Positions 918 through 58,923 are shown, counted from the first letter of the stretch. The stretch: DNA of 64,000 nt from Candidatus Lloydbacteria bacterium RIFCSPHIGHO2_02_FULL_50_18 (GCA_001821395.1 MHLM01000004.1:1-64000); one strand, 5' to 3'. Made by a program: numbers and translations. Notes: a model not told the origin generated them from the letters alone.

Positions 918-1194
918 AAGGTTTCTCCTGTGTATCAATGAGCGTTTGTCTAGACACAGTTCTGCACTAAAAACGAGAAGAAGTCAAGGGGTACTCCAGC
1001 GCCGTTTTGTTCTTGTGAGTAAGAAAAAACGCCCTATTTGTAAGGTTAAACGTGTAATTATACCAGGAGCATATTGAGGGATGGAATGAGTTTTTTTGGT
1101 AAACGAATTTCAGTAATCGCGGTTGTTTTTGTACTTACTTTCTTTATACTGTACGCAGTTGTCCCGTGAGTCCTAAGTGAATGGAGGTTTTGAG

Positions 1195-1500
1195 ATGATA
1201 TCGCCCATCGCGATTGTTAAATGTATGTATCCCGGATGCGGCAAGTGGATCGCAGGGCACCCGAAGCGCCAGTTCTGTAATGCGCATAGCAAAAAATTGC
1301 TTGAAGTGGCGAAGAGGCAATGTGAGAATGATCCACTCTTTCCGCCCCCACCGTTAGCCGGTCGACCTCCCACCCCAGAGCAAAACAGAGAAGCATCACC
1401 TCCTACCGAAACCCCCGTGCACCGGCGCGTACGGAGTGTCCATCAGCGACAGATCGAGGTATTGAAGCGAAAGATCGCAAGGAAAGCCCATGAACCATGA
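1195..1500 (+). CDS. small Cys/His-rich zinc-ribbon-like protein
   Basis: ATG at 1195 preceded by GGAGG (1181-1185); CPGCGK...CNAH motif; Pro-rich C-terminus. Confidence 0.4.
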   Translation: MISPIAIVKCMYPGCGKWIAGHPKRQFCNAHSKKLLEVAKRQCENDPLFPPPPLAGRPPTPEQNREASPPTETPVHRRVRSVHQRQIEVLKRKIARKAHEP

Positions 1501-6704: not shown

Positions 6705-6884
6705 ATGCTATCTCTCGAAGAATGTAAGAAACACATACGAAGTCTGGACTTACCTGATGATGAGGTCGAAAAAATCAGGGACCTTTTGTATGCCTTTGTG
6801 GAAAGAACGCTGGACTATGGCCTTGAAAAAGGCATGTTTGTTGTTGCACATAAGCCATGTCATCCAACCGATCAAGAAAACTAG
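6705..6884 (+). CDS. possible small acidic protein upstream of / overlapping the recombinase start (excisionase/regulator-like by position only)
   Basis: Inner ATG of track ORF 6648..6884; charged helical-looking sequence; overlaps the recombinase start by 28 nt. Confidence 0.25.
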   Translation: MLSLEECKKHIRSLDLPDDEVEKIRDLLYAFVERTLDYGLEKGMFVVAHKPCHPTDQEN

Positions 6885-8458
6885 ATTCAAGCTCAGCACT
6901 AATCTATTGCCGAGTCTCCTCGGATCGCCAGGCGAAAGAGGGTCATGGACTCGATAGTCAGGAGCATCGATGTCGCGAGTACGCGAAGTCGAAGAGTTAT
7001 GAAGTGGAAGACGTATTTACCGATACCTTCAGTGGCGGCGGTGATTTCTTGAAACGGCAAGGCATGGTCGCGTTACTACATTACATAGATAAGCACCCGC
7101 ATAGAAACTATGTTGTGGTCTTCGACGACTTAAGCCGATTTGCTCGAGATGTCGCGGCTCATATAAGGCTTCGACAAGAGTTTGATAAAAGAGACACAAA
7201 GATTGAGTGCCCAAACTTCACGTTTGAAGATACGCCAGAGGGTGAATTGGTGGAGAACATTATGGCGGCACAGAATCAGTACCACAGGAAAAGCAACAGG
7301 AGACAGGTAATTCAGAAGATGAAAGCTCGACTTGAGAAGGGGTATTGGCCTCACTATCCGCCACCGGGCTACAAGCAAGCGAACGATCCAGTACACGGTA
7401 AGCTCCTAAAACCAATAGAGCCTCGGGCAAGCATAATCAGAGAAGCCTTTGAAGGGTTTGCTTCTGATCGCTTCATGACTCAGACCGACGTCATGTACTT
7501 CCTACGAGGGACTGAATATAACAATGGCAGACCTGTTTACGTGGAAGGAGTCAGGCGTCTGCTCCGCCGGGTGGTATATGCCGGTTATGTCGAGCGTGAG
7601 GAATGGGATGTGTCGAGACGTAAGGGACAGCATGAAGCACTGATTAGTTTGGAAGTGTTCGAAAAAGTCCAAGCAAAGCTCGATGGCAAGTGTAGGGTGC
7701 GCACGCGGATAAGTGACAAACTCGACTTCGCACTGAGAGGCTCAATCCTGTGTCACGAGTGTAGGCGTCCACTAACGGGAAGCTGGAGCAGAGGGAGGAG
7801 CAAGATGTACCGATTCTACCGATGTAACACGCCGTCATGCGCGCGCTATAACAAGAGCCTCAATGGTGATTTCGTGGATGAGAGATTCAAAGTGTTACTT
7901 GAGTCTGCTGTACCGCGAGCAGAACTTCTTGAACTCACACGGGCGATTGCTCTAGACGTATGGTCAAAGAGAATTAAGACCATAGATGAGCGTCGGACAG
8001 AGCTCGAGAGGAAGCTCACTGAAACACGACGGCAGGTAGAGGTATTCTCAGACCGGATCGTCAGAGCAATAGACGAATCGATGGTTCGAGTGTACGAGGA
8101 GCAAATTGTCCGAATAAGGGAAGAGGGACTTCTCATCCAAGAACAACTGCAGAAACTCGGAGTATCAGCCTCGAGCTTTGAAACCGCACTTGAAGTGGTG
8201 ATGGGATTCCTAAAAGACCCAGTGTTCATATACGAAAATGGAGACATGAACGCAAAAAGACTAGTCCTAGGACTAGTCTTCGCGGAGAAATTGGCGTTCC
8301 ATCACAAGGATGGCTTTGAAACCGCTCAAAAGCCAATGTTAATCGGGCTATTTGAACAGATTCACACCAAGGATTCCCAAGATGTGGAGATGGCGGGGGC
8401 GAACCCGCGTCCAGCAGAGAAGAGTACAAAGATCTACGTGCGTAGGTTGTCTCATTGA
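6857..8458 (+). CDS. large serine recombinase (resolvase/invertase-type catalytic domain + recombinase and zinc-ribbon C-terminal region)
   Basis: N-terminal ALIYCRVSSDRQ catalytic serine motif; 533 aa; Cys cluster CHECRRPLTG...CNTPSC; coiled-coil C-terminus. Confidence 0.9.
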   Translation: MSSNRSRKLDSSSALIYCRVSSDRQAKEGHGLDSQEHRCREYAKSKSYEVEDVFTDTFSGGGDFLKRQGMVALLHYIDKHPHRNYVVVFDDLSRFARDVAAHIRLRQEFDKRDTKIECPNFTFEDTPEGELVENIMAAQNQYHRKSNRRQVIQKMKARLEKGYWPHYPPPGYKQANDPVHGKLLKPIEPRASIIREAFEGFASDRFMTQTDVMYFLRGTEYNNGRPVYVEGVRRLLRRVVYAGYVEREEWDVSRRKGQHEALISLEVFEKVQAKLDGKCRVRTRISDKLDFALRGSILCHECRRPLTGSWSRGRSKMYRFYRCNTPSCARYNKSLNGDFVDERFKVLLESAVPRAELLELTRAIALDVWSKRIKTIDERRTELERKLTETRRQVEVFSDRIVRAIDESMVRVYEEQIVRIREEGLLIQEQLQKLGVSASSFETALEVVMGFLKDPVFIYENGDMNAKRLVLGLVFAEKLAFHHKDGFETAQKPMLIGLFEQIHTKDSQDVEMAGANPRPAEKSTKIYVRRLSH

Positions 8459-8775
8459 TTTCATGTCGTAAGGGCTAGGCAAACAAAACCTTACGAGCAC
8501 TACTCCCTTAGTTTTCGTTATCGTATTCGGGTACTACGATTCTTATCCTGAAAATATGACACGAAGGATGGGCCTATCAGGCGTACTCCCGCTTCGCGCC
8601 GTCTACTTAAGCGTAGGCGAAAGCGAAATTGTTGGCCTTAAAGTAAGGCGTCGCAATTCCACCGGTGCTTTTCTTGGCACTTTCAAGTTGTTCGCGTGAT
8701 TTACGAGACTACGAACATGCTCGGCACGCACGATATACTACTTCTTCCACTGTCGAAACATTTCATCCCCCTAAA

Positions 8776-12518: not shown

Positions 12519-12676
12519 TACCCACCCGTAGCAGAGTTGGTAAGCCAGCTCACTACGTGAGGCCTGGCTGGCTTTTTCGAAAATGAGCCGGCCACCGCCA
12601 GCGCATTCACACAACTCGTCTTCTCCGTTACACTACGAAGGCGATCTCGAATAGAGCGGTCGTCTTTGGAAAGGCA
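12519..12676 (+). pseudogene. degenerate tRNA 5' fragment (copy of the 5' half of the downstream tRNA-Ile) with a ~111-nt structured element inserted in its D-loop
   Basis: cccacccgtagcAgagttgg ... tagagcggtcgtcttt matches the tRNA at 12860 except D-stem mismatches; no intact 3' half. Confidence 0.5.
12541..12651 (+). ncRNA. copy 1 of a conserved ~112-nt hairpin-rich element (terminator-like hairpin + TTTTT, CACC-loop hairpin, ACACAACTCGTCTTCTCCG and CGATCTCGAA blocks)
   Basis: Same element at 58634..58746 with compensatory changes in two stems (AGCCAG/CTGGCT vs AGCCAA/TTGGCT; GCCGGC..GCCAGC vs GTCGCC..GGCGAC). Confidence 0.55.
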
Positions 12677-12857
12677 GCGAGAGATAAATGAAAGTTCTAC
12701 TTTCATTTGAATCGAGTGAACCTTTCCGTTCTTTGAGAATTTTGTGCACGCATAGCTCAGTTGGTAGAGCGGTCGTCTTTAGAAGAGCAACGAGAGATAA
12801 ATGAAAGTTCTACTTTCTTTTGAATCGAGTGAACTCTTCGCATTCTTTGAAAACTTA
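12677..12857 (+). repeat. two tandem ~110-nt units, each [~77-nt spacer with gaaagt-tct-actttc hairpin] + [tRNA 5' half]
   Basis: Spacers 12677-12745 and 12781-12857 are ~85% identical; second unit contains tRNA 5' half 12746-12780. Confidence 0.6.
12746..12780 (+). other. tRNA 5' half (acceptor GCACGCA, D-arm, anticodon stem GTCGT, loop start CTTT); its matching 3' half is at 12952..12986
   Basis: Acceptor 5' GCACGCA pairs with TGCGTGC at 12979-12985; stems GTCGT/ACGAC perfect. Confidence 0.55.
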
Positions 12858-12859
12858 GT

Positions 12860-12932
12860 CCACCCGTAGCTCAGTTGGTAGAGCGGTCGTCTTATACACG
12901 ATTGGTCCCTGGTTCGAGTCCAGGCGGGTGGA
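12860..12932 (+). tRNA. tRNA-Ile (anticodon UAU; loop CTTATAC), no encoded CCA
   Basis: Hand-folded cloverleaf: acceptor CCACCCG/CGGGTGG, D-stem GCTC/GAGC, anticodon stem GTCGT/ACGAT, T-arm CCTGG-TTCGAGT-CCAGG. Confidence 0.7.
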
Positions 12933-12951
12933 CTCAGTTTTGAAAGAATTT

Positions 12952-12986
12952 ACGACTGGTCCTAGGTTCGAGTCCTAGTGCGTGCA
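12952..12986 (+). other. tRNA 3' half (anticodon-stem 3' strand ACGAC, T-arm CTAGG-TTCGAGT-CCTAG, acceptor TGCGTGC) matching the 5' half at 12746..12780
   Basis: Read directly; separated from its 5' half by ~170 nt that contain the intact tRNA-Ile. Confidence 0.55.
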
Positions 12987-13001
12987 CAAAGATTTGAAAG
13001 G

Positions 13002-13030
13002 CCGTACGATTGGTCCCCGGTTCGACTAAG
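13002..13030 (+). pseudogene. truncated tRNA 3' fragment (ACGAT TGGTC CCCGG TTCGACT then unrelated sequence)
   Basis: Anticodon-stem 3' strand and T-arm 5' strand only; T-stem 3' strand and acceptor are missing. Confidence 0.4.
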
Positions 13031-26046: not shown

Positions 26047-26128
26047 TTGTGCATACGAGTAAGTCACCTTTTTATCCTTACTGCTCACACTCATGAACAC
26101 CATTCCCTGCTATCCCGAACCTGAAGGT

Positions 26129-29100
26129 ATGAAAAAGAAGATCAGCGCATTTTCTTTTGCGATACTTTGTGCGGTGATCCTTTTTTTTGGTGGGGCGAAC
26201 ACCGCCATGGCCGCAGCAAGAGTGGCTTCAGTCTCTGGTAATTGGAGTAGCACTGCGACATGGGGTGGATTGTCGGTGCCGACTTCTGCGGATACTGTCA
26301 CGATCAATAGTGGTATCACGGTCACGATAGATATTGCAGCAGCCGCCAGTACACTTACCTTTGCTGCAGTCACTACAAACAGTGCGGTAAACATAAGCGG
26401 GACAAACTCGCTTGCGGTAACCGGCCTAGTAAGCATGCCGAGACCATCGACTGGTCGAACAGCAACAATTGCTGTGGGTGCGGGGACATTCAATGCGGGC
26501 TCTCTCACGATGAGTGCGACGACCCTGGGGCGGAATGATATTTTGAGTATTTCGACCGGAACGGCCACGATAGCCGGAACGATCACTACCGGAACTACTG
26601 GCTGTCAACTGACTCTTACCGATGCCGGGACGCTGAATATCGGTGGCAACTTCACCAGTACTCCGACGCTCACGACATTTACCGGTTCTATGGTGAACTA
26701 CTATGGCAATGCCACGCAAACTATTCGACCGATCATCTATAGCAATCTCACACTCTCAGGTGCAGGCACAAAAAATTTTCCTGCAGCTGCAACGGTAAAT
26801 GGTAATTTGACTTTGAGTGGAACGGTAACGTCGACAACAGCCGCGGCAGAGATCATTGGCGGAAATCTTGACGTGGGTGCAGGGGCTACTTTTCGTACGG
26901 GAACAACGAACACTTGGACGCTTGGTGTGACGGGTACCACGAACGTCACAGGAACTCTGACGCTTGCAAATACCGGTACCAAAACATTCACCGGTGCGGT
27001 TACGCTGAATAGCGGTAGCACTTGGAGTGAGACCGGAATTGCTGCGGTGACCTTTAATGATGATCTGACAAACAACGCCACTACTTTTATGGCAAATACC
27101 GGAACGCATACCTTTGGTGGCATAACTCATACGTTAAGCGGTGCAACTACGATAGCGATTCCCGGAACGGCAACTTTCACAGGTCCTTATGCAAATAATG
27201 GAACGCTTACTGCCGCAACGCTCAGCGCAATTGGTGGAACTGCGGTTCTTACCAACAACGGTACCATAACTGTTTCTACTGCCTTGTCAGGAAGTGGCGG
27301 ATTCACTCAGGGAACTATGGGCGCATTGAATCACGGTGGTTCAACGATCGCTATCACCATATTTGAAGCTAGTGCCGTCGGGAATACGGTGAATTATACT
27401 GATGCAGCGCAGACGGTAAGAGCGGTAGCGTATGACAATCTGATCCTTTCCGGTTCTGCTGCAAAATCCATGGCCCCAGGCACTTCAGTTGCCGGTAATT
27501 TGAGCATTGCGCCTACTGGTTCAGCTTCGGCCAGTATTGCGGCAGGTCAAAATATCAGCGTTGACACATTGACACTTGGCGGCGCAGGGAAAAGTGACGG
27601 CACTTGGGGCTCAACCAGCTCTACTGCGACCAATCAGAACAATACCTATTTCGCTCCGACGACCGGCATCCTGACCGTCACGACTGATAGTCGAGTGCCC
27701 CAGGTAGCCCTGACTGCTACTGCCTCTCTGTCGACTGTTTCATATGGCTCGACGTCAACGCTCTCTTCAACGGGAGGATCCGGAACGGGGGCGGTATCAT
27801 TTTCAGTTGGTGCTTCGACCGGGTGTTCGATCACGGGGGGAGCAATTCTGAATGTAACGAATGTCTCTGGCACATGCGCGGTCACCGCAACAAAGGCTGG
27901 TGATGATACCTATAAGCCGGCATCATCGTCACCATTAACAGTTACCTTGACGAAAGCCACCCCAATCCTCTCCGTCACGAACTCACCCGTCACATACAAC
28001 GGTACATCGCAGTCGGCGACCGTGACCGGTTCAGTGTCCGGTACACCAAGCAATATCAAGTATGACGGTTCGGGAACCGCTCCCACGAACGCCGGCACAT
28101 ACGCCGTCACCGCGAACTTCACTCCCGCTGATACTACCAACTACTTCTCCCTCACCGACGCGTCGGCAGGGAGCTTCGTGATCACGAAGGTGACCCCGAC
28201 GCTCTCCGTCACGAACTCGCCCGTTGCCTATGACGCCGCACCTCATGCCGCAACTGTCTCGGGTTCCGTCGCGGGCTCCGCAAGTGCTATCCTCACGGGC
28301 GGTGCCGCATCACAAACGAACGCCGGTACCTATGCCGTCACCGCGAACTTCACGCCCGCCGACACCACGAACTATTTCTCTCTCACTGATGCGTCTGCAG
28401 GGGATTTCGTGATCACCGGAGTGGATCAGACGATAACCCTTGATGCTCTCTCGGATAAAATGCTTGGTGATCCCGATTTTGTCGTCTCAGCTACTTCCTC
28501 TTCAGGTCTGACTGTCTCATTCTCATCGCTTACTACGAGTGTTTGCACAGTGACTGATCCAACGGTACACCTTGTCTCTGTGGGAACGTGTACGATCCGC
28601 GCCGCACAAGGTGGGAGCGGTAACTACAATCCTGCTCCAAACGTAGATCAGTCATTTTCAGTCAATCATCCGGCGACAAAATTCGTCATTCTTCCACCCA
28701 CGGATGGTACAACGGATGCGCCAGTCACTGTTACTATTCAGGCACAGAAAGCGGATAATAATATCGATACCAGTTATCAGGACGATGTGACGCTCGGTAC
28801 CACCGGATCCGCATCGGGTGGCGGACTCGTTGATATCGAAAATGGCATCGGCACGAAGAATATTTCTGACATCATGGCAGAATCGATCACACTTTCGCTT
28901 GATGACTCGGAGCTTACGGGGCTTGATTTCTCATCAACGCAACCGCTCGTGTTCCACGCAGGCGCAACCGCTCAGTTTTCCCTCAGTCACCCTGCGACGT
29001 TGGCCGCAGGAGAGCGGGCACCGTACGTTGTTACTCGTCAAGACCAGTATGGCAACAACACTGCGAGCGCAACAAGCACCGTGTATTTCTTCAGTTCATC

Positions 29101-31747
29101 ATCCGGCGTGAATAAGAAATTTTATGATGCCGCATCCGGAGGAAGCATTGTTTCGTCGATCGTCATCTCCGGCGGGCAATCATCGGGGAATGTGTGGTAC
29201 TACGATGAACTAGGAGGAGAATGGACGATCACCGTATCCGATAATGCAGGAGGCCCCGATGGGAATGCTGGGGTCAATGATGCCATCGACTTACTCCAGG
29301 TAAACGCGGGTTTCGTGTCTAAATTCTTATTCAATGATCCTGGTGATATGATGGCAGGCACCCGACTTGCATATACCGTTACTCGTAAAGATCAGTTCGA
29401 TAATCTTGCCTCAGTCGGCATCACCCCCGCCTATCTTTACAGCGATTCTACCGGCACCAGCGCTCCTCAATTCTACGATTCCGCGATCGGGGGAAGCGTC
29501 ATCTCCATTCTTTCAATTCCGAACGGCTCTTCGACTGTATCCGTTTGGTATTCCGATCCGAACCCCGGGACTTGGACGGTTACCGCGTCCGATCACGCGA
29601 CCGCTCCGGACGGAGCGGCGGGTATCATTGATGCTACTGATGCGGTGGTCGTTGGTGCCGCCCCCATCGTTGCAACGCGATTCGTGATCAGACCATCGGT
29701 GAATGGAACAGTAGATGCACCGATTACGGTCACTGTGCGTGCGGAAGACGCAAACGGAAATGTTGATACGTCGTATCAAGAAGATGTGACGTTGAATGCA
29801 GATGGTTCTGCCTCAGGTGACGGACTAGTGAATATCGTCAACGGCGTTGGCACTATCGCGCTCGCTGATACTGTTCCGGAAGATGTGAATCTTTCGCTCA
29901 CTGACAGCGAAGCAACCGGTCTCGATTTCTCGTCAATGCGGGTAGTGACCTTTGCTCCCGGTGCCGTCGCACAATTCTTGCTTGATAATCCGGGTGATGC
30001 TGCTGCCGGTATGCGCATCGCATACAATGTCACACGTCTAGATCAGTATGGTAACTCGGTGTCATCCGGGGCAACAACGGTTCATCTCTATAGCACGTCA
30101 GACGGAGTGAATAAAAAGTTCTATGATGCGGCGATCGGAGGCAGCGCGATCACGTCGATCGTCATTCCGAACGGTTTCTCTTCCGTCGGATTCTGGCAGT
30201 ACGATGAAAAGAGCGGCAACTGGTTCGTTACGGCTTCCGATAATGCTACGGTACCCGACGGTGCGGACAATATAGATGATGCGAGCGACGCCATCACCGT
30301 GCAACCGGCAGCCCTTGCGGCATTTGTGCTTAATGAACCGGGAAATATGACCGCGGGTACGCGACTGGGCTACACGGTCACGCGCCGGGACCAATTCGAG
30401 AACCAGGTTACGAGTGGTGTGGCTCTTGCATATCTCTACTCATCTTCACCTGCGACGACAACTGCGTTCTATGCGGCAGCGACCGGAGGGTCACCAACGA
30501 CCTTTATCACCATCAATGACGGCAATGCGGTCGGTAATTTCTGGTACTACGATGAGACGGACGGCACTTGGCTTGTGACCGTCTCTGATTCGGCCGTCGC
30601 GCCTGATGGTGCCGTCGGTGTACGTGATGGGTCTGACCTGGTATCAGTGAGCGCAACGCCAATCACGGCAACTCGTTTCGTGATCCTTCCCGTATCATCG
30701 GTGCAGGTAGGCTCGCCTGCGACGGTTACCGTGGAGGCACAGGATAATGCGGGGAATATTGATACTACCTACCAGTCTGATGTGATGCTTCATGCAAGCG
30801 GATCGGCGACCGGAGACGGACTGGTGAACATCGTGAATGGCGTGGGGACAATGACCCTCAGGGATGCAGTTGCGGAAGCAGTTACATTGTCGCTTTCTGA
30901 CACGGAAGACACTCTTCTTGATGTGTCTTCGACTCGGCTGCTTACCTTTACCGCGACCCCTGTTGTTCCATCGTCAGGTGGTATCGGGAGCACTGCATCC
31001 ACCCCGGCACCGGCCCCCTTCGTTCCACGCGTTACGGGAGTGCAGATCTCGGGGGTAGCATTTCCGCAAGCATTCATCCATGTTCTTGCGACCTCGGGAG
31101 AAGGATCGGCAATGCAAGGTCAAACGACTGCTACTGCGAACGGCTCGTTCTCATTGTTGTTGAAAAATGTGAAAGTAGGTGCCGGCTCCTACGGTATCAT
31201 CGGCATTGATAAGCTTGGATTCACAACTCAGACGAGAGTGTTCAACGCGAATTATGCGAATAAAGATACATTGCTCGATCTCGGTGCGCTACTGCTTTCT
31301 CCAACACTCAATCTCGTTCATCCGACGGTGCGAAAGAGCGATGTAGTGGGATTTGTGGGGATGGCGGGACCAAGGTACGCTGTTGACGTAGAGATTGACG
31401 GAGAGTCCGCAACTGCTCGTACCGTAGCGTCTGCTGACGGCTCCTACAAGGTACTCTTCCCGACCGGCGAACTCGCGCTGGGTAGTCATACGGTTCGAGT
31501 GCGCCAGACATCACCAAGCGGTAAACAGAGTGAAAATTCACCTCAAAAGATATTCACCGTTACAAGCCTTTTCACTCCGCAGACTGATTTTAATCAAGAT
31601 GGTATAATCAATGTACAAGACTGGAGCATCTTCATCTCACGATGGATGTCTTCTATCGAGGCGACGCGTCTGCTTGATGACCTGAATAATGACGGTAAAG
31701 TGGATGTCTCGGATCTCAGCATCTTCGTTCGCACAATTAAAAGATAG
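26129..31747 (+). CDS. giant repetitive cell-surface protein (Thr/Gly/Ala-rich beta-repeat N-region, Ig-like tandem domains, C-terminal dockerin-like double calcium-binding repeat)
   Basis: Signal peptide after MKKKIS (RBS GAAGGT); internal repeats; C-terminal DFNQDGIINVQDWSIF...DLNNDGKVDVSDLSIF matches the dockerin repeat pattern. Confidence 0.85.
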   Translation: MKKKISAFSFAILCAVILFFGGANTAMAAARVASVSGNWSSTATWGGLSVPTSADTVTINSGITVTIDIAAAASTLTFAAVTTNSAVNISGTNSLAVTGLVSMPRPSTGRTATIAVGAGTFNAGSLTMSATTLGRNDILSISTGTATIAGTITTGTTGCQLTLTDAGTLNIGGNFTSTPTLTTFTGSMVNYYGNATQTIRPIIYSNLTLSGAGTKNFPAAATVNGNLTLSGTVTSTTAAAEIIGGNLDVGAGATFRTGTTNTWTLGVTGTTNVTGTLTLANTGTKTFTGAVTLNSGSTWSETGIAAVTFNDDLTNNATTFMANTGTHTFGGITHTLSGATTIAIPGTATFTGPYANNGTLTAATLSAIGGTAVLTNNGTITVSTALSGSGGFTQGTMGALNHGGSTIAITIFEASAVGNTVNYTDAAQTVRAVAYDNLILSGSAAKSMAPGTSVAGNLSIAPTGSASASIAAGQNISVDTLTLGGAGKSDGTWGSTSSTATNQNNTYFAPTTGILTVTTDSRVPQVALTATASLSTVSYGSTSTLSSTGGSGTGAVSFSVGASTGCSITGGAILNVTNVSGTCAVTATKAGDDTYKPASSSPLTVTLTKATPILSVTNSPVTYNGTSQSATVTGSVSGTPSNIKYDGSGTAPTNAGTYAVTANFTPADTTNYFSLTDASAGSFVITKVTPTLSVTNSPVAYDAAPHAATVSGSVAGSASAILTGGAASQTNAGTYAVTANFTPADTTNYFSLTDASAGDFVITGVDQTITLDALSDKMLGDPDFVVSATSSSGLTVSFSSLTTSVCTVTDPTVHLVSVGTCTIRAAQGGSGNYNPAPNVDQSFSVNHPATKFVILPPTDGTTDAPVTVTIQAQKADNNIDTSYQDDVTLGTTGSASGGGLVDIENGIGTKNISDIMAESITLSLDDSELTGLDFSSTQPLVFHAGATAQFSLSHPATLAAGERAPYVVTRQDQYGNNTASATSTVYFFSSSSGVNKKFYDAASGGSIVSSIVISGGQSSGNVWYYDELGGEWTITVSDNAGGPDGNAGVNDAIDLLQVNAGFVSKFLFNDPGDMMAGTRLAYTVTRKDQFDNLASVGITPAYLYSDSTGTSAPQFYDSAIGGSVISILSIPNGSSTVSVWYSDPNPGTWTVTASDHATAPDGAAGIIDATDAVVVGAAPIVATRFVIRPSVNGTVDAPITVTVRAEDANGNVDTSYQEDVTLNADGSASGDGLVNIVNGVGTIALADTVPEDVNLSLTDSEATGLDFSSMRVVTFAPGAVAQFLLDNPGDAAAGMRIAYNVTRLDQYGNSVSSGATTVHLYSTSDGVNKKFYDAAIGGSAITSIVIPNGFSSVGFWQYDEKSGNWFVTASDNATVPDGADNIDDASDAITVQPAALAAFVLNEPGNMTAGTRLGYTVTRRDQFENQVTSGVALAYLYSSSPATTTAFYAAATGGSPTTFITINDGNAVGNFWYYDETDGTWLVTVSDSAVAPDGAVGVRDGSDLVSVSATPITATRFVILPVSSVQVGSPATVTVEAQDNAGNIDTTYQSDVMLHASGSATGDGLVNIVNGVGTMTLRDAVAEAVTLSLSDTEDTLLDVSSTRLLTFTATPVVPSSGGIGSTASTPAPAPFVPRVTGVQISGVAFPQAFIHVLATSGEGSAMQGQTTATANGSFSLLLKNVKVGAGSYGIIGIDKLGFTTQTRVFNANYANKDTLLDLGALLLSPTLNLVHPTVRKSDVVGFVGMAGPRYAVDVEIDGESATARTVASADGSYKVLFPTGELALGSHTVRVRQTSPSGKQSENSPQKIFTVTSLFTPQTDFNQDGIINVQDWSIFISRWMSSIEATRLLDDLNNDGKVDVSDLSIFVRTIKR
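27940..28440 (+). repeat. in-frame tandem repeats of ~231 nt (77 aa) inside the giant gene
   Basis: Near-identical DNA at 28111-28220 and 28342-28440. Confidence 0.6.
28675..31000 (+). repeat. three ~1-kb (about 333-aa) tandem domain repeats inside the giant gene
   Basis: Blocks beginning ATKFVILPPTDG (28675), ATRFVIRPSVNG (29677), ATRFVILPVSSV (30670), each with a conserved VNIVNGVGT / FYDAAIGGS subdomain. Confidence 0.6.
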
Positions 31748-33504: not shown

Positions 33505-33529
33505 ACCAGCATGACAGTGCTGGTTTTTT
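33505..33529 (+). terminator. rho-independent terminator
   Basis: accagca-tgacag-tgctggt then TTTTTT. Confidence 0.65.
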
Positions 33530-33673
33530 ATGTGCGGAGGGGGCGAGATGTTCGACGCCTACTGCGTCAGTACCCGTTTCCCATTTTCTCAACATAAGAA
33601 TGTCTCGAAAATAGGGGAGAACGGCTTCGAATCTCGCACGAAAGTCGAGCAGTCGACTTTCTCTCCTCCGCAT

Positions 33674-33707
33674 AAAAAAATCACGCTCATGCGAGCGGAT
33701 TTTTAAA
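33674..33707 (-). terminator. hairpin + T-run immediately downstream of the minus-strand type II tRNA
   Basis: Minus strand ccgctcgcatgagcg followed by ATTTTTTT. Confidence 0.45.
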
Positions 33708-33796
33708 TGCGGAGGGGGCGAGATTCGAACTCGCGGACCGTTTAACGGGTCGACAGTTTAGTAAACTGTTGATTTAAACCACTCATCCACCCCTCC
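33708..33796 (-). tRNA. type II (long variable arm) tRNA, Ser-like; anticodon loop TTACTAA gives nominal anticodon ACU (unusual); CA after the discriminator
   Basis: Hand-folded: acceptor GGAGGGG/CCCCTCC, 3-bp D-stem, anticodon stem ACAGT/ACTGT, long arm, T-arm GCGAG-TTCGAAT-CTCGC. Confidence 0.5.
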
Positions 33797-33829: not shown

Positions 33830-34360
33830 TGAAAGAGAGAGGGCGGGAATTGGTCACAAGTCATACCATCTCCAGTTAACTCTTTCTGCTCACAGAAGTT
33901 TCAAAGGTCAGTCCTTGGCCCTGCCTGCGCAGGCAGGTTTGAAAGGTCTCTCCTTGGAAACTGATTCGGAAGACCTTAACGAGAGATGGTATCACTAAGC
34001 GTATGCGGAGCAAGGCTCCTTATCCGTTAAGTGCACCACGGAGAGGGCGGGAATTTCTCGGCTTACAGCCGCAATACACCTTTGCGATTTATTCAGCATA
34101 AGAATGCTTCACAAATATCACCACGAGGAGTACTTCATTTTTCTAAGACGGAGTACCGTTAAGAAAAATTGGTCGCGCAAAGCTTTTCGAATCTCTTTGC
34201 GAGAGGGCGGATGCGGTCACGAGTTACTAAGCTTTTTATTTCGCTTCGCTCATAAAAATCTAAGTACTCTCGACCCCGACTCGGCTACGACCTTCGACGA
34301 GCTCAGGTCGGCTTCGCGCCTCCGTCTTTCGAATCCCGCCCTCTCGCGCAATGGCATATT
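33830..34360. repeat. array of partial copies of the tRNA-Ser 3' end, plus an 18-bp palindrome cctgcctgc|gcaggcagg at 33920-33937
   Basis: Copies at 33831-33860, 34038-34066 and 34199-34230 are direct (same orientation as the gene); 34340-34356 is inverted. Confidence 0.55.
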
Positions 34361-34381
34361 AAAAAAGACCTTTCGGTCATT

Positions 34382-34471
34382 TTTAAGCCATTGGCGGAGA
34401 GGGCGGGATTCGAACCCGCGAGGGGTTTTATCCCCTGCCACGTTAGCAGTGTGGTGCCTTCAGCCGCTCGG
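34382..34471 (-). tRNA. tRNA-Ser (anticodon GCU), CCA encoded
   Basis: Hand-folded type II cloverleaf: acceptor GGAGAGG/CCTCTCC, loop CTGCTAA, long arm, T-arm GCGGG-TTCGAAT-CCCGC. Confidence 0.8.
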
Positions 34472-57185: not shown

Positions 57186-57192
57186 CAAATAC

Positions 57193-57218
57193 AAAAAAAC
57201 TGCTTTTGCAGTTTTTTT
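57193..57218 (+). terminator. rho-independent terminator after tRNA-Asp
   Basis: aaaaaaactgc-tttt-gcagttttttt. Confidence 0.6.
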
Positions 57219-57235
57219 GTGTTTGCACGGTGGAG

Positions 57236-57262
57236 GAAGCATCTGCATGCTTCCGACGAGAC
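57236..57262. repeat. palindrome ggaagcat-ctgc-atgcttcc followed by an inverted copy of the tRNA-Asp T-arm/3' end (gacgagactcgaactcgc)
   Basis: 18-nt exact reverse complement of tRNA-Asp 57161-57178. Confidence 0.55.
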
Positions 57263-57329
57263 TCGAACTCGCCATCACCATGATGAGTACTTCCAATTTC
57301 ATACTCTCTGTAGTCGTTGAAATTTAGGT

Positions 57330-57385
57330 CGCTCCATAAAGCCTGCGATGACGATCTCGAATAAGCTTCGCTTCTCGTCCGTCCC
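57330..57385. repeat. third, fragmentary copy of the tRNA-associated element family (CTGCGATGACGATCTCGAATAAGC + TTCGCTTCTCGTCCG)
   Basis: Matches the 3' block of the elements at 12541-12651 and 58634-58746. Confidence 0.45.
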
Positions 57386-57393
57386 GTAAATAC

Positions 57394-57417
57394 AAAAAGT
57401 ACCTAAAGGTACTTTTT
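57394..57417. terminator. bidirectional terminator hairpin aaaaagtacc-taaa-ggtacttttt (downstream of minus-strand tRNA-Met)
   Basis: Read directly. Confidence 0.55.
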
Positions 57418-58209: not shown

Positions 58210-58300
58210 AAAATTGAACATTTAGAAGAAATAGTGTACGATTTTGCTTGTTGTTCCATTTGCCTGCTTGATATTTACTGTTCAGCTGTTTGTTGCAGAG

Positions 58301-58326
58301 AATATTTGAAGTGCCGTCGTAGCTGT
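58301..58326 (+). repeat. partial upstream duplicate of the tRNA-Thr(GGU) leader + first 13 nt
   Basis: atttgaagtgccgtcgtagct repeated at 58338-58362 where it continues into the intact tRNA. Confidence 0.55.
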
Positions 58327-58348
58327 TTTGGTAGATAACATTTGAAGT

Positions 58349-58424
58349 GCCGTCGTAGCTCAGCTGGTAGAGCATCTCCATGGTAAGGAGAAGGTCCCCG
58401 GTTCGATCCCGGGCGACGGCTCCA
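58349..58424 (+). tRNA. tRNA-Thr (anticodon GGU), CCA encoded
   Basis: Acceptor GCCGTCG/CGACGGC, loop ATGGTAA, T-arm CCCGG-TTCGATC-CCGGG. Confidence 0.85.
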
Positions 58425-58436
58425 TGATCGGGATAG

Positions 58437-58485
58437 TGTGCCGCCTTAGCTCAGTTGGCAAAAGAAAGTCAGACAGCTCACTCGT
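58437..58485 (+). pseudogene. partial 5' duplicate of tRNA-Thr(CGU) (first 23 nt) followed by a degenerate anticodon-arm-like hairpin
   Basis: gtgtgccgccttagctcagttgg identical to 58531-58553; then cactcg-tta-cgagtg. Confidence 0.5.
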
Positions 58486-58534
58486 TACGAGTGTTGAGGA
58501 AGATGGTGTAAAATAGTGAACAATTGAATAGTGT

Positions 58535-58610
58535 GCCGCCTTAGCTCAGTTGGTAGAGCATCTCACTCGTAACGAGAAGGTCCGCAGTTCGATCCTGCGA
58601 GGCGGCTCCA
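58535..58610 (+). tRNA. tRNA-Thr (anticodon CGU), CCA encoded
   Basis: Acceptor GCCGCCT/AGGCGGC, loop CTCGTAA, T-arm CGCAG-TTCGATC-CTGCG; A31·C39 mismatch. Confidence 0.75.
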
Positions 58611-58620
58611 AGTAAATAGT

Positions 58621-58803
58621 TTCGCTCAGTTGGTAAGCCAAGTCCGCAAAGCCAGACACTGGGTTGGCTTTTTCGTAGCAGTGTCGCCCACCGGCGACGC
58701 ACCACACAACTCGTCTTCTCCGCTACGCTGCGAAAACGATCTCGAATAGAGCATCTCACTCGTAACGAGAAGGTCCGCAGTTCGATCCTGCGAGGCGGCT
58801 CTA
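58621..58803 (+). pseudogene. partial copy of tRNA-Thr(CGU) lacking the 5' acceptor strand and ending CTAG instead of CCA, with the ~113-nt structured element inserted in the D-loop
   Basis: gctcagttgg | element | tagagcatctcactcgtaacgagaaggtccgcagttcgatcctgcgaggcggctctag. Confidence 0.55.
58634..58746 (+). ncRNA. copy 2 of the conserved ~112-nt hairpin-rich element
   Basis: Aligns with 12541..12651 over full length with stem-preserving substitutions. Confidence 0.55.
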
Positions 58804-58923
58804 GAAAAAGAACGTAGTATTTTTTTGTCCGCCTCAAGAAAATAACTGCTTGTTTTCTGGCAGGATCGAATAGCGAAGCTAAAAAGCCGCGCATATGCGC
58901 GGCTTTGTGTACTCACTCATTTC

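Follow-up and report, generated by a model that had tools for sequence, protein, structure and literature searches.

Partial 5' copies upstream of two tRNA-Thr genes of a Candidatus Lloydbacteria genome, probably old tandem duplications kept matched to the live genes

Incomplete copies of tRNA genes that lie beside a functional gene are known from several systems. The plastid trnL-trnF spacer of Brassicaceae, Solanaceae and others carries tandem trnF(GAA) pseudogene repeats, which persist for millions of years (PMC3786074). Genomic islands leave a different trace: the Islander definition comprises an intact tRNA gene, a displaced fragment of its end and an integrase gene between the two, over 2-200 kb, and 159 of the 3919 tRNA-gene islands surveyed leave a 5' fragment (PMC4383910). 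In Caldiarchaeum subterraneum a recombinase-encoding element of 1.8 kb lies between a 5' fragment of tRNA-Thr(GGU) and the gene, and there are introns in the genes (PMC3293823). Patescibacterial tRNA genes, finally, are known for group I introns (PMC13011429). Here we describe partial copies of tRNA 5' ends that precede the genes of tRNA-Thr(GGU) and tRNA-Thr(CGU) in a stretch of 64,000 nt (MHLM01000004.1:1-64000), referred to throughout as the window, which belongs to a metagenome-assembled genome (MAG) of Candidatus Lloydbacteria (Candidate Phyla Radiation, CPR/Patescibacteria) from the Rifle aquifer. We propose that these copies are probably old, decayed partial tandem copies of the tRNA genes that have been kept matched to the live gene, and not the scars of integrating elements. 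Contigs other than the window are cited under our own L numbers.

Two upstream copies and their surroundings

Upstream of tRNA-Thr(GGU) the 21-nt sequence ATTTGAAGTGCCGTCGTAGCT, which consists of a 9-nt leader and tRNA positions 1-12, is found as an exact pair at 58304-58324 and 58340-58360, the latter running into the gene itself (repeat finder, k-mer scan). The starts are 36 nt apart and 15 nt separate the fragment from its twin; the copy belongs to a tandem repeat of two 36-nt units (58290-58325 and 58326-58361) that are 83% identical. The initial annotation had reported this duplicate and it is real, except that it ends at tRNA position 12 rather than 13 and at a distance of 36 rather than 37 nt. 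The copy is followed by an 18-nt motif, GTTTTGGTAGATAACATT, a diverged copy of the D-arm which we call the core, and is preceded by an older unit of the same tandem family (Table 1).

The exact repeat at tRNA-Thr(CGU), ATAGTGTGCCGCCTTAGCTCAGTTGG, is 26 nt long and covers a 7-nt leader and tRNA positions 1-19. It stands at 58433-58458 and 58528-58553, a distance of 95 nt with an interval of 69 nt, so that here too the duplication reported earlier stands, with its extent corrected from 23 to 19 tRNA positions and its distance from 98 to 95 nt. The degenerate anticodon-arm hairpin said to follow it is present as described: CAGCTCACTCGTTACGAG (58474-58491) shares 16 of 18 positions with the anticodon arm of the gene, and a perfect 6-bp hairpin derived from that arm, CACTCG-TTA-CGAGTG, occupies 58479-58493. 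Within the same body a weak promoter-like arrangement, TTACGA (58485-58490) and TAAAAT (58509-58514) spaced by 18 nt, matches the consensus at 8 of 12 positions by eye, while the promoter scanner is silent on it. Considering the insert-bearing copy downstream of the gene (see below), the CGU locus reads as three tandem copies, i.e., a first pseudo-copy, the live gene and a second pseudo-copy that bears an insert.

Exact direct repeats of at least 16 nt within 250 nt of each other number ten in the real window, all at tRNA loci except two inside a repetitive open reading frame (ORF), and none were seen in 50 shuffles of the window. The two exceptions (17 and 20 nt, about 232 nt apart, 27968-28354) lie inside an ORF of 1884 amino acids (26093-31747) and are probably repeated protein domains. 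The 715-nt intergenic region that holds the tRNA-Thr copies is 100% identical in the Joint Genome Institute (JGI) contig L001 and in NCBI MHLI01000005.1 (L002), and over its 5' part L003 and L004, two other assemblies, show no difference either. The initial annotation had allowed that the fragments might disappear on re-sequencing or turn out to be common low-complexity matches. As four assemblies made by different pipelines agree on the sequence, the repeats are not low-complexity, shuffled sequence yields none of them and homologous modules are found in other species, we regard the probability of chance matches or of an assembly artefact as negligible.

A sigma-70-like promoter, TTGAAC-17 nt-TACGAT, sits 60 nt 5' of the first repeat unit. 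TTGAnA-17-TACGAT occupies the same site, after the stop codon of the neighbouring ICMT-like methyltransferase gene, in L015, L012, L008, L016, L018 and L011 and also in L020, and is called in L012 by the consensus promoter scanner (threshold of at least 9 of 12 matches to TTGACA/TATAAT with a spacing of 16-18 nt). All features 3' of this promoter would thus presumably lie inside the primary transcript.

Orthology, unit number and concerted change

Relatives of the locus were reached through homologues of the neighbouring ICMT-like protein and then through the contigs encoding them, a route that is unbiased as to repeats; searching contigs directly with this protein for synteny gave no matches. 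The ICMT-like protein of the window is identical to one that NCBI assigns to a Candidatus Lloydbacteria bacterium RIFCSPHIGHO2_01_FULL MAG. The synteny comparison places the 5' modules at the orthologous site in L015, L012 and L008. In L015, the closest relative, whose neighbouring protein is 89% identical, one GGU upstream unit is present versus two in the window, and the alignment lacks exactly 36 columns. In L012 (neighbouring protein 60% identical) the order of the two tRNA genes is swapped and each gene retains its module: GCGTATTGCCGTTGTAGCT, GTTTTGGTAGATAACATT and AGCGTATTGCCGTTGTAGCTCAG in succession precede the GGU gene, with an exact 20-nt repeat, AGCGTATTGCCGTTGTAGCT, whose leader differs from that of the window, whereas the 18-nt core is identical. 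L008 (62%) retains the core (GTTTTGATAGATAAACATT) beside a GGU acceptor copy that has decayed to 7 of 12 positions, and has the core 5' of its CGU gene as well. L016, L018 and L011 (59-70%) have no GGU unit. Overall, the core is conserved at 18 of 18 positions in L015 and L012, at 17 of 18 with an indel at the GGU gene of L008 and at 16 of 18 at its CGU gene.

The pseudo-tRNA-Thr(CGU) unit with its hairpin is likewise present in L012, and L020 carries two near-identical tandem units of 94 nt versus one in the window. Features specific to the pseudo-copy are kept in the alignment with L020 and L012, namely GGCAA in place of GGTAG, TCACTCGTT, and a purine-rich GT-A-A-AG after the hairpin. The adjacent leader and the surrounding intergenic DNA are not alignable across the relatives in which the core and the pseudo-CGU body are conserved, which argues for purifying selection on these two parts. 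The 18-nt core in particular is probably under selection.

Scanning JGI metagenomes for the exact 19-mer TGTTTTGGTAGATAACATT returned 13 contigs. Ten hits have no tRNA nearby and presumably arose by chance; the other three are immediately 5' of tRNA genes, Thr-GGU in L020, Thr-CGU in L021 and tRNA-Phe(GAA) in L026, and in these three contigs the sequence ahead of the core is always the acceptor strand of the tRNA that comes next. L026 has two identical 38-nt units, GGTATGACGCTTGGATAGCT followed by the core (leader, tRNA positions 1-12 and core), ahead of a tRNA-Phe(GAA) gene that starts with the same 20 nt. In L021 the acceptor copy has decayed to 9 of 12 positions; its core, like those of L008, keeps 16-18 of 18 positions.

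In any one genome the upstream copy agrees with the gene that it accompanies, also in the leader, and the leaders differ between species, a pattern seen in the window, L012, L020 and L026. This identity with the own gene, tandem units that vary in number and an acceptor copy that decays point to homogenised tandem repeats rather than to selection on the match with the tRNA. The course of events that we consider probable is as follows. Tandem duplication of the leader with the 5' part of the tRNA, or of the whole gene, would have put a second copy upstream in an ancestor of several Lloydbacteria-like lineages. The direct repeats that flank a unit could then mispair during replication or recombination, by which units would be gained and lost, leaving one or two in close relatives. 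Unequal crossing-over or gene conversion would repeatedly copy the leader and the acceptor part of the live gene over those of the unit, which would make the copies 100% identical within a genome even though leaders differ between species. The parts that do not resemble a tRNA, i.e., the core at the GGU gene and the hairpin body at the CGU gene, would be held by purifying selection and might influence tRNA expression in cis, whether by offering a secondary promoter or a regulator site or by directing the processing of the leader. The exact match with the tRNA 5' end would be a by-product of homogenisation, neither the functional part nor an attachment site. That the core or the pseudo-CGU body acts on the expression of the downstream tRNA is our guess, made from their conservation.

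It is conceivable that the 5' identity itself is selected. An upstream copy of the acceptor strand could compete with the gene's own for the 3' acceptor strand and serve as a decoy or timer for RNase P, or as a sensor of tRNA output. The units are downstream of a conserved promoter and are expected in the precursor, copy and gene change together in the window, L012, L020 and L026, a different tRNA included, and in the minimum-free-energy fold of the leader with the tRNA the cloverleaf is disturbed by the leader. Yet concerted evolution of tandem repeats yields the same co-variation without any function, the identity extends over the leader, which has no pairing partner, the acceptor copy is decayed in two contigs (L008, L021) and missing from three (L016, L018, L011), and the folding energy is no better than that of shuffled sequences. 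We consider such a role unlikely.

Several observations weigh against homogenised tandem copies with a selected core. The GGU unit is missing in three of seven relatives and is therefore dispensable. L020, L021 and L026 were found by the exact-core search and have perfect cores by construction, so that their tRNA context alone is informative. Independent duplications would not yield an identical 18-nt core 5' of Thr-GGU, Thr-CGU and Phe-GAA genes in different lineages; the shared core needs common descent together with strong selection, transfer between genes or some other mechanism. Gene conversion, in turn, is something that we infer from the pattern of identity. Inside the units of the window, L012, L020 and L026 the consensus promoter scan makes no call, and a -10-like TAACAT (58337-58342 in the window) that lies 7-9 nt before tRNA position 1 in five compact units comes without a -35 partner. 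RNA folding does no better than shuffles, with z = -0.68 for the GGU leader plus tRNA and z = +1.41 for the GGU-CGU spacer.

On the shuffle result a structural RNA role for the 5' fragments was dropped. A promoter role of the core was set aside as well and is regarded as no more than possible: a -35 partner is missing, the scanner is silent, a canonical promoter lies upstream in every case, and its distance is variable, the core being 20-58 nt from the gene at loci other than the compact units. Likeness of the core to a DnaA box, a LexA box or a CRISPR repeat was judged by eye and the matches are poor.

Two further features were noted in the contigs that carry the core. Two acceptor-plus-core modules 5' of tRNA-Thr(GGU) in L020 are separated by an inserted hairpin (1071-1135, minus strand) some 60 nt long, whose arms, ATTTTCCTTCATTAAATTTTAAAAA ... 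TTTTTAAAATTTAATGAAGGAAAAT, pair perfectly over about 25 bp. The sequence TATAATAGGGTC, a perfect -10 hexamer with the next bases, is found 5' of the tRNA modules in L021 (about 2500-2520) and in L026 (about 1330-1345, minus strand) and may be a promoter typical of stable-RNA genes in this lineage.

Remains of tRNA genes on the 3' side and at other loci

Table 1. Features of the tRNA-Thr and tRNA-Ile loci (window coordinates)
Feature	Position	Strand	Basis or remark
tRNA-Ile(UAU), intact, nested	12860-12933		locus 12522-13027
Sigma-70-like promoter of the tRNA-Thr operon, TTGAAC-17 nt-TACGAT	58214-58242	+	directly 3' of the ICMT-like stop codon
Older diverged leader unit, ACTGTTCAGCTGTTTGTTGCAGAGAAT	58277-58303	+	36-nt tandem family; extra unit, absent from the closest relative L015
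Exact 21-nt copy, leader and tRNA-Thr(GGU) positions 1-12	58304-58324	+	repeat finder, k-mer scan
Core motif (M), 18 nt, diverged D-arm copy	58325-58342	+	cross-species alignments
tRNA-Thr(GGU), intact	58349-58424	+	ARAGORN; Rfam tRNA model, 66.9 bits
Exact 26-nt copy, start of the pseudo-tRNA-Thr(CGU) unit	58433-58458	+	repeat finder, k-mer scan
Body of the pseudo-tRNA-Thr(CGU) unit	58459-58527	+	alignment with L020 and L012
tRNA-Thr(CGU), intact	58535-58610	+	ARAGORN; Rfam tRNA model
Third, decayed 5' copy: leader ATAGT and TTCGCTCAGTTGGTA, acceptor strand deleted	58616-58635	+	repeat family, alignments
D-loop insert, about 110 nt, in the dead third copy	58636-58746	+	homologous to 12543-12651 (tRNA-Ile locus)
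Displaced original 3' part of tRNA-Thr(CGU), positions 20-76	58747-58803	+	repeat finder, k-mer scan
Native downstream flank of the ancestral tRNA-Thr(CGU)	58804-58845	+	aligns with the flank of the intact gene in L008

Downstream of tRNA-Thr(CGU) the window holds a third 5' copy, an insert in its D-loop and a 3' fragment of the tRNA (Table 1). The 3' fragment is exact over 55 nt (58747-58801), or 57 nt with CCA changed to CTA, and lies at an interval of 136 nt from the gene. As its downstream flank aligns with that of the intact gene in L008, we take it for the displaced original 3' end; that it retains its native flank shows that the debris on the 3' side fits the same logic of duplication and decay.

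The D-loop insert occupies an identical position, GGTA/.../TAGAGC, in a dead copy derived from tRNA-Thr and in one derived from tRNA-Ile. It consists of a terminator-like hairpin with a T-run, two more hairpins and a closing helix, and the inserts of the two loci have in common the exact 20-mer CACACAACTCGTCTTCTCCG, of which none is expected by chance. The insert is also present in L007 (6864-6971), a MAG labelled Saccharibacteria, and absent from strain L004; compensatory base changes are seen among these three copies, the only ones available. It has no match in Rfam, and a covariance model built on it and run over 147 kb turned up no more copies. Next to a decayed copy of tRNA-Asp lies a remnant of the insert's 3' end, CGATCTCGAATA (57352-57363, within 57347-57363). 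The insert also holds a promoter-like TTCACA-17-TACACT. We considered and rejected its reading as a miniature inverted-repeat transposable element: TA is duplicated at both junctions, but neither end has terminal inverted repeats.

Strains differ on this side of the gene. L004 is the same as the window up to the T-arm of tRNA-Thr(CGU), then has two single-nucleotide polymorphisms, one in the T-loop and one making a G-U pair in the acceptor stem, and then continues into unrelated downstream DNA (L004 1640-2141 versus window 58590 onward), which carries a short 3'-end repeat of its own about 146 nt further on. The translation of an ORF in that downstream DNA gave by itself no lead, no family-library search having been made. 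L003 diverges, accumulating substitutions, inside the 3' fragment (L003 4740-4772). Judging from these alignments, tRNA 3' ends are here recombination breakpoints between strains, without any island-size element.

The initial annotation, which pointed to the tRNA-Ile locus, held that fragment duplication is a recurrent feature of tRNA loci in the window. This is borne out: copies of a gene's own ends lie close by at Ile, Ser-ACT, Ser-GCT, Asp and both Thr, six of the window's eight tRNA genes. The duplication does not favour 5' fragments as had been supposed; direct and inverted 3' fragments are at least as common.

At the tRNA-Ile locus, 5' halves lie upstream of the intact gene (12522-12542 with 12652-12666, split by the D-loop insert at 12543-12651, and 12746-12779) and 3' halves downstream (12952-12986 and 13006-13027). 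The 5' half at 12746 has the acceptor strand GCACGCA, complementary to TGCGTGC of the 3' half at 12952, and together these two halves make up the intact tRNA-Ile of L007; that gene has thus been split in the window, at anticodon position 34/35, by an 85-nt spacer, a new tRNA-Ile and a trailer. Behind every tRNA-Ile 5' half there is a spacer some 85 nt long (12667-12745 and 12780-12859; L007 6986-7070). Its outer stem covaries (GAAGAG/CTCTTC, GGAAAGG/CCTTTCC, GGGGAGG/CCTTCC), as does an inner hairpin, and its internal loops CGAGAGATAA and TGAATCGAGTGAAC are invariant, all on the strength of three copies only. The spacer has no match in Rfam and may be a decayed 3' half turned into a structured element.

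Halves of this kind raise the question of whether a split, permuted or intron-containing tRNA is assembled here by joining the 5' fragment (...CAGTTGG) and the 3' fragment (TAGAGC...) as RNA. The D-loop breakpoints are complementary within 1-2 nt, halves with complementary acceptor strands flank the intact gene at the Ile locus, and Patescibacteria carry tRNA introns, some of them invisible to Rfam (PMC13011429). Still, we hold such joining to be highly improbable, for an intact copy of each tRNA exists, and the tRNA-Ile rebuilt from the outer halves is plainly intact in L007. The third tRNA-Thr(CGU) copy has no acceptor 5' strand, its 3' fragment ends in CTA instead of CCA, and substitutions accumulate in that fragment in L003. 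The inserts, of 69-288 nt and in one case holding a whole tRNA, are unlike any known intron class. Rfam scans of the Thr and Ile loci at both gathering and permissive thresholds returned tRNAs only and no ribozyme, leader family, group I or II intron or other family, although divergent introns that escape Rfam are known in the phylum.

A common layout is found downstream of four tRNA genes, one of them on the unrelated contig L026: Asp (57187-57400), Ser-ACT (33520-33708, minus strand), Ser-GCT (33837-34391, minus strand) and the tRNA-Gly of L026 (2715-2870). After a first terminator comes an inverted copy of the T-arm and acceptor 3' strand, broken at the T-stem/acceptor junction by a perfect hairpin of 15-25 nt; some 60-130 nt further on the tRNA 3' end recurs in direct orientation, with a trailer of its own and another terminator, and at Ser-GCT three such direct 3'-end copies succeed one another. 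The core of the layout, TCGAAAGACGGAGGCGC...GCCGAGTCGGGG...GTGACCG, is common to the window and to the tRNA-Gly of L026.

Two of the tRNA genes concerned have unusual anticodons, tRNA-Ser(ACU) (33709-33796), which adjoins tRNA-Ser(GCU), and tRNA-Ile(UAU). An A at position 34 is rare in bacteria outside tRNA-Arg.

At some distance from the tRNA-Thr locus, a large ORF for a serine recombinase (Resolvase and Recombinase domains, 533 amino acids, plus strand) overlaps with its 3' end the transfer-messenger RNA (tmRNA) gene (8382-8770, minus strand); this region, 6857-8770, may be the sign of an element integrated towards one end of the window. Just 5' of it, the sequence at 5621-5752 matches the LOOT RNA family (RF03000) with 51.9 bits, the gathering score being 46.4.

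Integrating elements and other known parallels

A site-specific integrative element that has since been deleted almost wholly, or a miniature element moved in trans, could have left fragments of this kind as scars. The layout is the correct one, as the intact gene is accompanied by terminal fragments in a single orientation, 5' upstream and 3' downstream. Islands with 5' fragments exist; the view of the initial annotation that 5' scars are unusual holds inasmuch as they are a minority (4% of islands, 159 of 3919), and they are nonetheless known (PMC4383910). An archaeal tRNA-Thr(GGU) 5' fragment beside a recombinase element has been described (PMC3293823). Finally, the 3' side shows real strain polymorphism, from the T-loop onward in L004 and inside the 3' fragment in L003, and the 3' fragment keeps its native flank.

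The sizes, on the other hand, do not fit. The intervals are 15 nt (GGU), 69 nt (CGU, 5') and 136 nt (CGU, 3') and contain no gene-sized ORF, compared with at least 2 kb and an integrase gene in Islander. A Pfam search of the genes at 51.8-63.9 kb found no tyrosine integrase, the neighbours being housekeeping genes (ligA, gatCA, the ICMT-like methyltransferase and a class A penicillin-binding protein), and the sole recombinase among the 18 window ORFs scanned is the serine-type enzyme, about 50 kb off. On the 5' side strains do not vary: the modules are identical in L001-L004 and orthologous in L015, L012, L008 and L020, and the units are tandem and variable in number. Neither is there a viral contig with the core, the D-loop insert or the Ile-locus spacer beside a tRNA. 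The eight exact core matches in viral contigs are all in unrelated, apparently protein-coding sequence, and the D-loop insert and the Ile spacer have none, so that we see no sign of a phage attachment site (attP). An integrase aimed at the 5' portions of tRNA genes, as had been suggested, is contradicted by intervals of 15-69 nt without an ORF, by the lack of an integrase within 6 kb and by modules that are invariant across strains and orthologous at 60-89% protein identity. We consider scars of an integrative element very improbable, and as an explanation of the 5' fragments they are close to refuted.

Local duplication with homogenisation is the simplest explanation of the locus, which is real and conserved and, for a streamlined genome, somewhat surprising. 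Genomes of CPR/Patescibacteria are streamlined, at about 1 Mb, and most tRNA genes of the window are wrapped in several hundred bases of their own debris, part of it conserved across species. Should the core or the pseudo-tRNA body control tRNA output, it would provide compact regulation of single-copy tRNA genes in organisms with few regulators; should the modules be recombination products only, they would still show that small-scale duplication and exchange between strains take place mainly at tRNA loci in these genomes, and they would be apt to mislead both the tRNA annotation of MAGs and island-finding software, for which a tRNA gene with a fragment is the signature. We also entertain, as a rather doubtful thought, that Lloydbacteria-like CPR bacteria possess an undescribed family of tRNA-derived cis-modules beyond decay products, for which the leader module (own leader, acceptor strand and core) and the D-loop insert are candidates. 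A core dedicated to the control of tRNA expression, or an insert that proved to be a miniature element, mobile or intron-like, with the D-loop as its target, would in either case be a new kind of element.

The distal tandem repeats of Escherichia coli tyrT, each with the 3' end of tRNA-Tyr, are attributed to unequal recombination; unlike the copies described here they are downstream, consist of 3' ends and are confined to one species and one locus. In CPR/Patescibacteria, a term search of the main text of PMC13011429 finds no mention of partial or duplicated tRNA gene copies, and our literature searches found no description of them.

Islander islands resemble the tRNA-Thr locus in having an intact gene with a terminal fragment on the correct side and in the correct orientation, and differ from it in that our locus has no integrase, no insertion polymorphism on the 5' side, intervals of 15-136 nt and tandem units that are orthologous between species. 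In Caldiarchaeum, as here, a 5' fragment of tRNA-Thr(GGU) stands upstream of the functional copy and the locus is heterogeneous in the population, whereas in the window no recombinase element separates the fragment from the gene. The plastid trnF pseudogenes share more. In both systems partial tRNA copies are arranged head-to-tail just 5' of the functional gene (here in units of 36, 94-95 and 38 nt), they lie beside or between promoter motifs of the sigma-70 type, and the number of units varies among close relatives (two in the window versus one in L015 at the GGU gene; two pseudo-CGU units in L020 versus one in the window). Unlike the plastid copies, which mostly lack acceptor strands, the copies described here have kept the 5' acceptor strand and the leader best. 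Moreover, in these free-living (episymbiotic) CPR bacteria the modules are found at several tRNA genes, and an 18-nt core is common to different tRNAs and lineages.

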